A stretch of DNA of 8,594 bases. It comes from a virus. Taxonomy: Duplodnaviria; Heunggongvirae; Uroviricota; Caudoviricetes. Under the pieces are notes generated by a model. The model was not told the origin of the DNA, did no database searches, and worked only from the letters and a program-made list of their open reading frames with translations. This document shows positions 4,828 to 8,277 of the stretch, piece by piece (position 1 is the stretch's first letter; each line of letters begins with the position of its first letter). The position numbers and the translations under genes were made by a program. The stretch lies in IMG/VR virus record IMGVR_UViG_2740892431_000003, one strand, 5' to 3'.

Positions 4828-5412
4828 TTATTGTTTGTTTTTTTCGTTCTGGTTGATGACAAATTCAATGTAACTTTCGATCTTTGCTTTCTCGGTTTCG
4901 GGTAACAATGCGTAGCGCGAGCGGTCATAGTTGATGGTCGCAGGGTCGTGCGGGTGAATCAGTAATTCATAGCCGTGACGCCCGAATGCGGATGCAACAT
5001 TCTCCAGGGTGGAAATGGAAACGCTGACCTCATTGTTTAACAGGCGACTGATTGTCACCTGGGCGACGCCGGATGCGCGGTGAAGTTTTCCCTGCGTTGA
5101 AAGGTCGCGGCTTTCGCTCATCCAGCGTTCCAGGTTGTGAGCCGCCAGCTGACCAATGTCGCTTGGGCCGACAGGCTGAAAACCTTCCTGAGAAAGCGAG
5201 CGATCGATATCAAGCCAGTTACGGGGTTTATTGGCGGCAGCTTCAATTTTTCGTGCAACCTGGTCGCCGATAACCTTCTTGCCAAGAGCCCAGCGGTTTA
5301 CCAGATTTGCCTGAGTTCCAAGTTTTTCTGCCATCCGCGTCTGAACACCATTGAATTCACGGTCGATCAAGTCGTTGAGATTTTGCCTGCGGACGTCCTG
5401 GATACTTTTCAT
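4828..5412 (-). CDS. Prophage repressor (CI-like role) with two tandem XRE-type HTH domains and no S24 peptidase domain
   Basis: First HTH roughly …VQTRMAEKLGTQANLVNRWALGKKVIGDQVARKIEAAANKPRNWLD; second roughly …LHRASGVAQVTISRLLNNEVSVSISTLENVASAFG. Placed between the divergent operator-bearing promoters, followed by its own terminator. The C-terminus has no Ser/Lys peptidase motifs. Confidence 0.7.
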   Translation of the reverse strand: MKSIQDVRRQNLNDLIDREFNGVQTRMAEKLGTQANLVNRWALGKKVIGDQVARKIEAAANKPRNWLDIDRSLSQEGFQPVGPSDIGQLAAHNLERWMSESRDLSTQGKLHRASGVAQVTISRLLNNEVSVSISTLENVASAFGRHGYELLIHPHDPATINYDRSRYALLPETEKAKIESYIEFVINQNEKNKQ

Positions 5413-5466
5413 TTTCTGGAAAATCGCCTCATATATGAATCAGTAGATGATTCAATTTAAAGCAAT

Positions 5467-5531
5467 ATTACCCAACAGGTAAATGCACCTCATAGGTAAC
5501 TATCCTTGATTTTTGTTACCTTATGGGTGAA
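5467..5531. promoter_or_regulatory. Immunity-region operators (OR) in the divergent promoter region between the repressor and the Cro-like gene
   Basis: ATTACCcaacaGGTAAA (5467-5483), abutting weaker site TGCACCtcataGGTAAC (5484-5500), and GTTACCttatgGGTGAA (5515-5531). A candidate -35 TTGATT (5505-5510) for the rightward promoter sits just upstream of the third site. Confidence 0.55.
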
Positions 5532-5566
5532 TATTTATTATCTGAAATAAATATCAGGCAATAGCT

Positions 5567-5797
5567 ATGAGCGATAACGGACATTTCGATTTCAAAAAGC
5601 ACTGGCTTGCACTTACTCCGGATGAGCGTGAAGCCTTCGCACAGGAAGCCGGAACGACGAGTCACTATATCCAGACTCACTTAACAGGTAAGCGCAAAAT
5701 GCCAGGTAAGGTATTGATGAATGGGCTTTTTAAAGCCTGTAAAACAAGACAATGGCTGCGCTCAAAAGCAGAACTGGCATACTTCTTCTACTCATGA
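5567..5797 (+). CDS. Cro-like small DNA-binding regulator (putative), first rightward gene
   Basis: 76 aa, divergent from the repressor, immediately downstream of the operator cluster and followed by a terminator. The call is positional plus a weak HTH-like segment (LTPDEREAFAQEAGTTSHYIQTHLTGKR); the family assignment is tentative. Confidence 0.5.
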   Translation: MSDNGHFDFKKHWLALTPDEREAFAQEAGTTSHYIQTHLTGKRKMPGKVLMNGLFKACKTRQWLRSKAELAYFFYS

Positions 5798-5819
5798 TAT
5801 CCAGCTACAACCCTCTGTA

Positions 5820-5844
5820 GACCGCCACCCGGCGGTCTTTTCAT
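5820..5844 (+). terminator. Rho-independent terminator after the Cro-like gene (tR1-like position)
   Basis: GACCGCC-accc-GGCGGTC stem-loop (5820-5837) followed by TTTTCAT. Confidence 0.55.
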
Positions 5845-5947
5845 ATCTATTCGTACCTCAAAGGTAATAAAAAACCAAATCTGGTTGATCTTTTTTTTGT
5901 GTCAGCACAAAATGACCGTAACCCCAATACTAATAGCAGGGCTTACC

Positions 5948-6163: not shown

Positions 6164-6997
6164 ATGAGCAGACATGCAACAGATTGGGCCTGGGAGACAG
6201 ATCCAGGTAGCTCATCATTAAAGCTCATACTGCTCTCGATGGCTGACAGAGCCGATGAATATAACCTCTGCTACCCCAGCATAGAACGCCTCGTTAAAGA
6301 CACTTGCCTGAATAAAAAAACCGTGCAGGCCGGGCTTATATCGCTCATGAAAATGGGGCTTATTTCAGATACCGGAGAGAGAAAGGGAGCGACAAAAAGA
6401 GTGCGGGTTTTCTCTCTTAATATAACCAAAAACGGGAACATTAAAGGCAACCGGGAGGGGGGCAATGAACCCGAAAACGGTAATGTTACCGAAAACGGGA
6501 ATATACCCAAAAACGGGATGTTGAATGATCCCAAAAACGGGATGTTGAATGATCCCAAAAACGGGATCCAGAACCAGTCATATAACCAGTCATTTAACCA
6601 AGAGAGGGAGAGCAGGACAAAAACCGGGGATTCTGTTCCTCATGACCCCGGCGCAAACAACGCCGTGATGAATAACTTTGTTCCTCCTGGTGGGCCAGGG
6701 CAATTAGGTAAATTTGTCATGCATGAACAATGGCAGCCATCAGATGACTTTCTTCGGAAAAGCTCATTGCAGGGAATCTACCTGGACAGTCTGCCAACGG
6801 CACAGGAACTTGCAGAGTTCAGAATTTACTGGATGGCTGAGGGTAAGGCATACCATCAGGCACAGTGGGAGCAGAAGCTGGCAAGGCGCATCCAGTTCTG
6901 TAGACAGAAATCAGGTGAAGTCAGAAAGAGCCTTGACTGGCATAACACTGACTGGATAGATGAGGTGTGGGATGAAATCAACTCCAGAACTTCTTAA
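6164..6997 (+). CDS. Replication initiation protein (lambda O-like; N-terminal winged-helix DNA-binding domain, low-complexity iteron-encoded linker)
   Basis: N-terminus MSRHATDWAWETDPGSSSLKLILLSMADRADEYNLCYPSIERLVKDTCLNKKTVQAGLISLMKMGLISD is typical of phage replication-initiator HTH domains. It sits directly upstream of, and overlaps, the P-like gene and contains the iteron array. RBS GGAG precedes the ATG. Confidence 0.7.
   Translation: MSRHATDWAWETDPGSSSLKLILLSMADRADEYNLCYPSIERLVKDTCLNKKTVQAGLISLMKMGLISDTGERKGATKRVRVFSLNITKNGNIKGNREGGNEPENGNVTENGNIPKNGMLNDPKNGMLNDPKNGIQNQSYNQSFNQERESRTKTGDSVPHDPGANNAVMNNFVPPGGPGQLGKFVMHEQWQPSDDFLRKSSLQGIYLDSLPTAQELAEFRIYWMAEGKAYHQAQWEQKLARRIQFCRQKSGEVRKSLDWHNTDWIDEVWDEINSRTS
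6425..6571. repeat. Iteron array (putative phage origin of replication) embedded in the O-like gene
   Basis: At least six direct repeats with core (A)CC(C)(A/G)AAAACGG(G/T)A starting near 6426, 6470, 6488, 6506, 6530 and 6554, at 18-24 bp spacing. This includes a perfect 24-bp tandem duplication (6506-6529 and 6530-6553). A second short direct repeat AACCAGTCAT(A/T)T follows at 6572-6600. Confidence 0.6.
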
Positions 6998-7754
6998 TGA
7001 GTACGATCGCTTTCGTGGTGGGCATGACCACTCGACGGCGGTTGCTTCTGCTGACGATGAAAGGGCAAAGAAGGAGCAGGTTGCAAGAATTTTCAACGAA
7101 ATGTTTGTCCAGTTACAGGCTGCATTTCCAGGCAGCATCGCTGCTATCAGCGAGCAAGGAAAGCTAAACGAATTTCGAAAACAATGGATGCTTGCGTTTC
7201 TGGAGAATGGGATCACAACAATGGAACAGGTTAACGCTGGTATGCGCCACGCCCGCGCCAGTGAATCTCCGTTCTGGCCGTCGCCTGGGCAATTCATCAA
7301 GTGGTGCAAAGACAGCAAGATGGTTCTTGGCGTCACCATTGACGATGTGATGGCGGAGTTTCACCGGTACAGCAAGGAAAAAAGTTTATATCCTGGTGGT
7401 CCCGAAAGATTCCCGTGGCGACATCCGGTTATGTACTGGGTCGTATGTGATACCCGCCGTGCAATGTATCAGCGCCAGCTTAGCGAGATTGAGGTTGAGA
7501 AACACGCGCGCAGGCTGCTCGATGATTGGGCGAAAAAGGTGGCTTCCGGACAGCAGATACCCGATCCGGTGATCAGCATACAGGCAAAGCCAGAACCCAT
7601 GAGTACACCTCCGGACACAGGGAGAGACGTTTACCATCCACCAGGGCGAAGTTTCGGGTGCATGCCTAACGCCGCCACCCTTGGGGGAATAACACCGGCG
7701 CAGTGGCTGATGGAGGAATACAGGCGGGGAAAGGCGGCAGGATTTATCAAGTAA
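6972..7754 (+). CDS. Replication protein P-like (DnaB helicase loader, lambda P family)
   Basis: …IFNEMFVQLQAAFPGSIAAI…FRKQWMLAFLENGITTMEQVNAGMRHARASESPFWPSPGQFIKWCKD… closely parallels lambda P as I recall it (ITTMEQVNAGMR, PSPGQF). I chose the ATG at 6972 with RBS GAGGTG upstream; it overlaps the O-like 3' end as in lambda. Confidence 0.85.
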   Translation: MKSTPELLNEYDRFRGGHDHSTAVASADDERAKKEQVARIFNEMFVQLQAAFPGSIAAISEQGKLNEFRKQWMLAFLENGITTMEQVNAGMRHARASESPFWPSPGQFIKWCKDSKMVLGVTIDDVMAEFHRYSKEKSLYPGGPERFPWRHPVMYWVVCDTRRAMYQRQLSEIEVEKHARRLLDDWAKKVASGQQIPDPVISIQAKPEPMSTPPDTGRDVYHPPGRSFGCMPNAATLGGITPAQWLMEEYRRGKAAGFIK

Positions 7755-7790: not shown

Positions 7791-7869
7791 ATTACCTACT
7801 GGGTAATAAAATATTCTAAAATCTATTGATTTAGTGTCTTATGTGGTTTTTAATTACCTCAGGGGTAAA
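7791..7869 (+). promoter_or_regulatory. Third operator-flanked sigma70-like promoter upstream of the DUF1064-like gene
   Basis: Operators ATTACCtactgGGTAAT (7791-7807) and ATTACCtcaggGGTAAA (7853-7869) bracket -35 TTGATT (7826-7831), a 17-bp spacer and -10 TTTAAT (7849-7854). The downstream operator overlaps the -10 and start region; RBS AGGGG precedes ATG 7872. Confidence 0.5.
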
Positions 7870-8216: not shown

Positions 8217-8277
8217 ATCGACGATCTTTTTAGTTATCAATGTAATCAATAAGTTATGTGGATAAGCGAGGGTAAAG

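Follow-up and report, generated by a model that had tools for sequence, protein, structure and literature searches.

We analysed an 8594-nucleotide (nt) stretch of viral DNA, IMG/VR record IMGVR_UViG_2740892431_000003 (hereafter the window), which is the early region of an epsilon15/phiV10-like (Uetakevirus) E. coli prophage integrated beside guaA. We propose, with a probability of about 0.78, that positions 6423–6631 form the replication origin of this prophage, embedded in its own initiator gene (6164–6997, + strand), and the best reading of the repeat array found there is a set of initiator-binding iterons followed by an unwinding element. The proposal builds on observations that are established: the repeats themselves, selection on them at the level of the DNA, the conserved position of the array in the gene, the differing repeats of distant homologues, the domain architecture of the initiator, and copy-number polymorphism among prophages. 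It provides a concrete origin candidate for the epsilon15/phiV10 temperate phages, a group used in O157 typing and as reporter phages. We found no account of this origin in the literature, although our coverage was incomplete and an earlier mention is possible.

The original prediction, made from the letters of the window alone, had described direct repeats with the core AAAACGG(G/T)A in this gene, and they are present far above expectation. AAAACGGKA has six matches in the window, all on the + strand (6429, 6474, 6492, 6510, 6534, and 6558), compared to a mean of 0.13 and a maximum of 2 in dinucleotide-preserving shuffles, none of which reached six (0/200). The six copies span 6423–6567, and the spacings between cores are 45, 18, 18, 24, and 24 nt; the predicted spacing of 18–24 bp is correct for four gaps but not for the first copy, which stands 45 nt away. 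Tandem Repeats Finder (TRF) returned an 18-bp × 2.8 array at 6469–6518 and a 24-bp × 2.6 array at 6506–6567 with 100% matches, the latter confirming a predicted perfect 24-bp tandem duplication. It also returned a 12-bp × 2.4 array of AACCAGTCATAT at 6572–6600, which the original prediction had taken into its span without describing it. On the + strand the iterons are TAACCAAAAACGGGAA (iteron 1, 6423–6438), AACCCGAAAACGGTAA (iteron 2, 6468–6483), TTACCGAAAACGGGAA (iteron 3, 6486–6501), TACCCAAAAACGGGAT (iteron 4, 6504–6519), and ATCCCAAAAACGGGAT (iteron 5, 6528–6543, and iteron 6, 6552–6567), each identified by sequence, pattern match, and shuffle test, and iterons 4–6 by TRF as well. Every repeat falls within the open reading frame (ORF) at 6164–6997 (+), where they encode, as had been stated, the peptides TKNGNI, PENGNV, TENGNI, PKNGMLND twice, and PKNG.

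In iterons 5 and 6 (ATCCC-AAAAAC-GGGAT), an A-tract is flanked by 5-bp inverted arms that match perfectly (ATCCC/GGGAT), and iterons 1–4 retain CC...GG(G). The iterons therefore have the internal dyad symmetry around an A-tract that is a feature of the ori-lambda type. A possible decayed copy, AAAGGCAACCGGGAG, is seen at 6441–6462, in the 45-bp gap between iterons 1 and 2. Two other features of this region were rejected: terminator-like hairpins on the minus strand at 6514–6557 are just the arms of neighbouring iterons pairing together, and a 95-amino-acid (aa) antisense ORF at 6271–6558 (minus strand, with 'FNIPFLG' repeats) is a mirror image and by-product of the repeats, with no support as a gene.

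Whether the DNA or the peptide is conserved can be seen from homologous loci. About 3,500 clusters (50% identity) related to the initiator emerged from an exhaustive profile search, and most of them align over aa 1–145 only and have unrelated C-termini; the linkers that follow their N-domains carry P(K/E)NG...QNQSLEP motifs too, at 40–60% N-domain identity. From one-genome-per-species contigs, 29 homologous loci were retrieved with an 8-sequence N-domain alignment, spanning Superficieibacter, Marinobacterium, Vibrio, Pseudoalteromonas, Proteus, Providencia, Wohlfahrtiimonas, Rheinheimera, Acinetobacter, Desulfovibrio, Sphingobium, Methylotenera, and others. In these loci the word CCRAAANYGG has 116 sense-strand copies in 10.8 kb of summed linker DNA, compared to 6 copies elsewhere in 294 kb with both strands counted, a density in the linker ~500-fold above that of flanking DNA. 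The matrix of this family has C favoured before CC and G/A after GG, with CC and GG themselves invariant by construction of the search pattern. The word is used in reading frames 1, 0, and 2 (93, 12, and 16 copies, respectively), at least two frames being used in 13 of 26 loci, and is read as PKNG/PENG, PKT(E/G), or (T/F/S)QKR according to the frame.

Codon choice points the same way. In the common reading frame, Pro is encoded by CCC in 50/52 codons within the motif compared to 17/82 outside it, Thr by ACC in 15/17 compared to 42/169, Ser by TCC in 7/7 compared to 14/189, Lys by AAA in 53/54 compared to 127/195, and Glu by GAA in 22/22 compared to 79/169. This synonymous fixation runs against local codon usage, even in genomes of 36–42% GC, and gives Fisher p values of 1e-7 to 1e-19, which are inflated because repeat units within one gene are non-independent (concerted evolution). 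The residue at the variable central base, in turn, varies freely (N, I, S, T, and F). As the core is kept in three frames and its synonymous positions are fixed, selection acts on the DNA and not on the peptide. We take the behaviour across genera and across frames to be the robust part of this evidence, and, judging from these comparisons, peptide selection or neutral slippage cannot account for it. The array would be a clean natural case of selection on DNA-binding sites overriding coding constraint in three reading frames, and it accounts for the odd PKNG/QKR-rich low-complexity segment in proteins of the family.

Distant homologues, with N-domains about 40–54% identical, have repeats of other sequences at this point of the gene, all of them dyads with an A/T-rich centre. 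The repeat is TACCAACATTGGAA in Acinetobacter, TCGGAAAAATCCGA in Sphingobium, GTCGGTAAATGCCGAC in Methylotenera, and GTGCCAAAAGTGGCAC in a Zoogloeaceae locus, and Desulfovibrio has eight copies spaced 17 nt. Differing dyads at a constant position are what co-evolution of iterons and initiator would produce. The proposal that the iteron of the window would define replicon specificity needs correction, as the same core is found in Vibrio, Pseudoalteromonas, Proteus, and others, and in another type of E. coli prophage whose initiator shares just 49% N-domain identity with that of the window. Since the core is common to distant relatives and its design resembles the lambda iteron, it marks out a broad specificity class, not one replicon.

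The iterons are followed by a second conserved DNA element, three tandem 12-mers at 6572–6607 (+ strand; AACCAGTCATAT, AACCAGTCATTT, and AACCAAGAGAGG), which is a candidate unwinding element or single-strand binding motif. The copies in the window are spaced by 12 nt, reading AACCAGTCATAT AACCAGTCATTT AACCAAG. Among the 29 loci, two or three tandem GAACCAGTCA(nn) 12/13-mers are found directly after the last iteron in most cases; the strict two-copy GAACCAGTCA pattern is present in 23, at a density about 50× higher in the linker than elsewhere. These copies are usually 13 nt apart and therefore lie in different frames (NQS, then EPV), which is the source of the widespread 'QNQSLEPVIEP' peptide. 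GAAYC-type 12-mers persist in distant loci with differing iterons, and in homologues from AT-rich hosts an A-rich tract follows the array. The corresponding part of the window is a purine-rich tract at 6597–6631 (+ strand; AT skew +0.33 to +0.5), seen in the sequence and presumed to take part in unwinding, and we sought DnaA and IHF sites in or next to the array and found none. The tract ends in a degenerate iteron-like ACAAAAACCGGGGAT (6617–6631), on the far side of the 12-mers from the iterons. If this copy and the one at 6441–6462 are real, weak sites flank both sides of the putative unwinding element.

The initiator is a 277-aa homologue of phiV10 p43, as supported by the ORF, Pfam, the RefSeq annotation of IAI39 and phiV10, and an AlphaFold model built on 35 homologues. 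Pfam gave only two matches, HTH_36 (PF13730) at aa 18–67 (E 2e-10, above cut-off) and DnaT (PF17948) at aa 184–250 (E 1e-14), and did not assign Phage_rep_O (PF04492). The gene had been called 'O-like', which is apt for its position and architecture but not for its family. Lambda O itself matches Phage_rep_O only (E 6e-36), PF04492 matched one of eight family N-domains and only below threshold (E 0.017), and BLASTP of the initiator against lambda O was not significant, save for a short C-terminal patch, LDxxNTDWI. Remote homology between the N-termini of HTH_36-type proteins and lambda O has been claimed from HHpred (PMC5509034).

In the AlphaFold model, the N-terminal winged helix (aa 1–92, encoded by 6164–6439, + strand), which is presumed to bind the iterons, is confident (predicted local distance difference test, pLDDT, 88–98) and has an H-H-H-H-beta-beta topology, a fold that weakly matches MarR-type winged helices and the RepA_N initiator–DNA complexes 5kbj and 4pt7. 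Residues 94–176 are disordered (pLDDT below 50), and the C-domain is confidently folded at aa 180–252. The latter, encoded by 6701–6928 (+ strand; aa 180–255), is a DnaT-like single-stranded DNA (ssDNA)-binding domain, based on sequence matches to the DnaT C-terminal ssDNA-binding domains of PDB 4OU6, 6AEP, 9ZBT, and 2RU8 (E about 1e-19), and in Foldseek it superposes on the DnaT84-153–ssDNA complex with a template modelling (TM) score of 0.90. As iterons and 12-mers together encode aa 88–148 (the six iterons alone aa 88–135), the repeats encode the start of the disordered linker. Directly downstream, the helicase-loader gene (6960–7754, + strand; RefSeq start 6972) overlaps the initiator 3′ end, and its product matches Phage_lambda_P (PF06992, E 4e-53) with 41% identity to lambda P. 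The comparative evidence supports the earlier suggestion that the repeats probably double as DNA sites and flexible linker, as in ori-lambda, given the core conserved in three frames, the disordered linker, the lambda-P homologue downstream, and copy-number variation between strains.

The closest parallel to this arrangement is ori-lambda, which also has its iteron array in the initiator ORF, at the junction of the N-terminal DNA-binding and C-terminal domains, and a P-family helicase loader encoded directly downstream. The iterons are alike in their inverted arms ending in C/G tracts round an A-tract (lambda ATCCCTCAAAACGAGGGA; ATCCCTC-AAAAC-GAGGGAT compared to ATCCC-AAAAAC-GGGAT in the window) and in their spacing of about 18–24 bp (20–24 for lambda iterons). 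In contrast, lambda O belongs to Phage_rep_O whereas the window initiator is HTH_36 with a DnaT-like C-domain, and the window iteron is 16 bp compared to 19 bp in lambda. While ori-lambda has four 18–19-bp iterons and an AT-rich region, the window has six copies (4–8 in relatives), with tandem AACCAGTCA 12-mers and a purine-rich stretch instead of a strongly AT-rich tract. The layout, and presumably the function, is like ori-lambda, and the family membership is not. An origin built like that of lambda in a different, very widespread initiator family is a sound but unsurprising conclusion, which leaves the textbook picture of lambdoid replication unchanged; what adds interest is that the same translated origin, which can be read in any of three frames, recurs across a very large family of initiators.

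By analogy with lambda, we infer protein binding, unwinding, and origin firing at this site as follows. Rightward early transcription, suggested by the gene order, would yield the initiator and the P-like protein. The winged-helix N-domain would bind the six iterons through the core CCRAAANYGG, the best copies being ATCCC-AAAAAC-GGGAT, and build an O-some-like complex with the DNA bent at the A-tracts. In lambda-type iterons, footprinting showed that O contacts the outer G residues and bends the iteron centre (PMC7466680). Such a complex may destabilise the adjacent 12-mer and purine-rich stretch (6572–6631), and the DnaT-like C-domain and/or the P-like partner would then recruit host DnaB. 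A DnaT-type domain is known to bind ssDNA. As coding DNA, the sites are also translated, yielding a disordered linker rich in Asn, Gly, Pro, and Lys.

A circular record bears on this proposal. L041 (NZ_CP148379.1) is an 8461-bp circular E. coli record with a cI-like gene, cro, and ydaT (an immunity region), an initiator gene, a short P gene, rem/hokD, and a few others, in which the HTH_36-DnaT gene and the P gene are the sole annotated replication genes. The N-domain of its initiator is 49% identical to that of the window, and the gene has four CCCAAAAACGG-type cores in two reading frames. These features are consistent with a lambda-dv-like self-replicating module. Another record considered as a natural mini-replicon, L040 (NZ_CP130688.1), is a linear fragment and was rejected.

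Several points weigh against an origin at 6423–6631, besides the inflation of the codon statistics given above. A literature search turned up no experiments that show binding, unwinding, or initiation by members of this initiator family. A classic AT-rich unwinding region was sought beside the array in the window and not found: positions 6570–6620 have a GC content of 0.42–0.47, their nearest-neighbour stability is only moderately low (85–89th percentile of the window), and several intergenic stretches are far less stable than the array flank. The L041 'plasmid' could be an assembly or excision artefact, and all cores are in the orientation of the gene, which would also fit an RNA-level element.

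The alternative that survives best, though we consider it unlikely, is that the repeats are sites for the initiator or another protein with a regulatory role, such as autorepression, titration or handcuffing in copy control, or exclusion of related phages, and that replication starts elsewhere, for example in an AT-rich intergenic region. DNA-level constraint demonstrates a DNA site, not a replication start, and plasmid iterons serve both initiation and negative control. In addition, the array has no clear AT-rich flank, with far less stable DNA at 5431–5554, 5835–5874, 7803–7842, and 8224–8263, the last of which carries a perfect DnaA box and an IHF-like site. However, the array has a constant position in the gene and is followed by conserved 12/13-mers, and by an A-rich tract in AT-rich hosts; array and 12/13-mers together reproduce the layout of ori-lambda, iterons plus unwinding element, and the AT-rich intergenic stretches resemble ordinary promoter/terminator regions. 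We continue to prefer an origin at the array.

The number of repeats is polymorphic, as had been suspected: related E. coli prophages carry 4–8 cores, near-identical ones having 4, 5, 7, or 8 compared to six in the window, and they always differ by complete 18- or 24-bp units. Of 60 records sampled at even spacing from the 424 that matched, 46 have the same length as the window and 14 are shorter or longer (−42 to +48 nt), the change always being a multiple of 6. Complete 18- or 24-bp units can be added or lost without harm to the linker that joins the two folded domains. The largest array seen, with eight iterons, is in L002 (NZ_CP076267.1), where the same phage is entered as the circular, 38.7-kb 'plasmid pNADC1036guaAphage'; the assembly probably captured a phage genome that had been excised or was replicating.

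Unit number that varies freely, and always in frame, among near-identical prophages would also be expected of a slippage-prone low-complexity coding tandem, that is, a flexible Asn/Gly linker whose DNA has no function; the segment is disordered, and the perfect 24-bp copies resemble recent slippage. We regard this explanation as highly improbable. One 10-bp word recurs in three frames with different peptides, its synonymous sites are fixed against local codon usage, chemically unlike residues (N, I, S, T, and F) occupy its central base, and the 12/13-mers also change frame. These data, with the ~500-fold linker enrichment, largely refute it and set the array apart from plain coding tandem repeats. 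The poorest candidate is an RNA-level element, such as a translational pause or attenuation signal or an RNA-binding-protein site in the initiator mRNA: although 116/116 linker copies are sense-strand and CCC-AAAAAC-GGG could form a very small hairpin, no Rfam family matches in the window, a 3-bp stem is too weak for stability, A-tract-centred dyads with 17–24-bp spacing are typical of dimer-bound double-stranded DNA and parallel the footprinted lambda iterons, and uniform orientation is also expected of direct-repeat iterons pointing to an unwinding element.

If the array is an origin, the same origin type is relevant to the very large initiator family annotated as 'primosomal protein' or 'DnaT-like'. 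We raise, as a tentative possibility, that the array is the type example of a family-wide translated origin of HTH_36 initiators across Proteobacteria, in which the conserved 12/13-mers are a sequence-specific element. DNA sites would then dictate the sequence of the disordered linker in whichever frame they fall. That tandem GAAYC-N3-CA 12/13-mers are kept where the iterons have changed completely would suggest recognition by something conserved, the candidates being a host factor for helicase loading or the initiator through its single-strand binding. The 12/13-mers would be, in that case, a sequence-specific unwinding or loading element, beyond mere AT-richness. A further consequence of this reading is that unrelated prophages sharing the CCRAAANYGG core could cross-talk or be incompatible when they occupy the same cell.

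To place the array among known systems, we compared it with three further groups. The origins of Stx phages P27 and 933W hold six iterons where that of lambda holds four (Kozlowska et al. 2020, PMC7466680), and the extra iterons are weakly bound yet needed for efficient replication (PMC7466680). Like the window, these phages have a lambdoid in-gene origin with an iteron number that varies between related phages; unlike it, they have true lambda-type O proteins and iterons, where the window differs in both initiator family and iteron, and the window-type copy number is polymorphic (4–8) even in near-identical prophages.

DopC/DopE is a domesticated pair of an HTH_36-DnaT_C and a lambda-P-like protein in Cellvibrionales and Oceanospirillales (Brezellec et al. 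2017, PMC5509034), whose authors sought iteron-like sequences in dopC and found none (PMC5509034). The two-gene module of the window is alike in its HTH_36 N-terminus, DnaT C-terminal motif, and adjacent PF06992 protein, and differs in that the prophage module beside guaA carries a full iteron array, as expected of a mobile version still bearing its origin. All features of this module class are present in the window, namely HTH_36, DnaT, and adjacent PF06992 in a mobile context, as the guaA-adjacent prophage carries integrase, Bet/exonuclease, repressor, and terminase genes. The module is also found in the free phage phiV10 (genes p43 and p44). The prophage array would supply the ancestral, origin-bearing state for DopC/DopE, where iterons were reported lost.

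Iteron plasmids (RK2, F, pPS10, and R6K) similarly have direct-repeat sites for a winged-helix initiator beside short tandem 12/13-mers, and the window N-domain model weakly matches RepA_N–DNA complexes. The unwinding elements of these plasmids consist of 13-mer repeats, one strand of which is also a target of the Rep proteins. Plasmid origins are intergenic, whereas the whole proposed origin of the prophage is translated, and the partner encoded in the window is a P-type loader, with no DnaA boxes in or near the array.

The window is 100% identical to NZ_CP182365 and 99.9% identical to IAI39. Its genes are ordered as integrase, methyltransferase, Bet and exonuclease, cI-like repressor, cro-like ORF, a small ORF, initiator, lambda-P homologue, and a DUF1064 gene. 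The repressor gene (4828–5412, − strand) is divergent from the cro-like ORF (5567–5797), and between them, upstream of the latter, a consensus scan alone gave a pR-like promoter candidate (5513–5541, + strand, 9/12 matches) that would drive rightward transcription through the repeat array. A strong terminator-like hairpin (5819–5838; 8-bp stem with 6 GC pairs, followed by a T-tail) separates the cro-like ORF from the one after it, and the phiV10 annotation has a rho-independent terminator at this position. Promoter candidate and hairpin appear to form a tR1-like arrangement, which would imply antitermination or read-through control of the replication genes.

At the other end of the initiator gene, alignments to many relatives including phiV10 end at nt 725 or 746 of 834, and other phages match at nt 765–834 only. 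The 3′ part (window 6889–6997, nt 725–834) probably marks a mosaic recombination joint, and the last ~30 initiator codons seem to be inherited together with the P-like allele, a linkage that contact between the C-terminal tail and P would predict. Finally, positions 8224–8265, just downstream of the DUF1064 gene, are among the least stable AT-rich stretches in the window. They contain a perfect DnaA box, TTATCCACA (8257, minus strand), adjoining an IHF-like site, AATCAATAAGTTA (8244), a pair that may be a coincidence, serve regulation, or assist replication as an auxiliary element.

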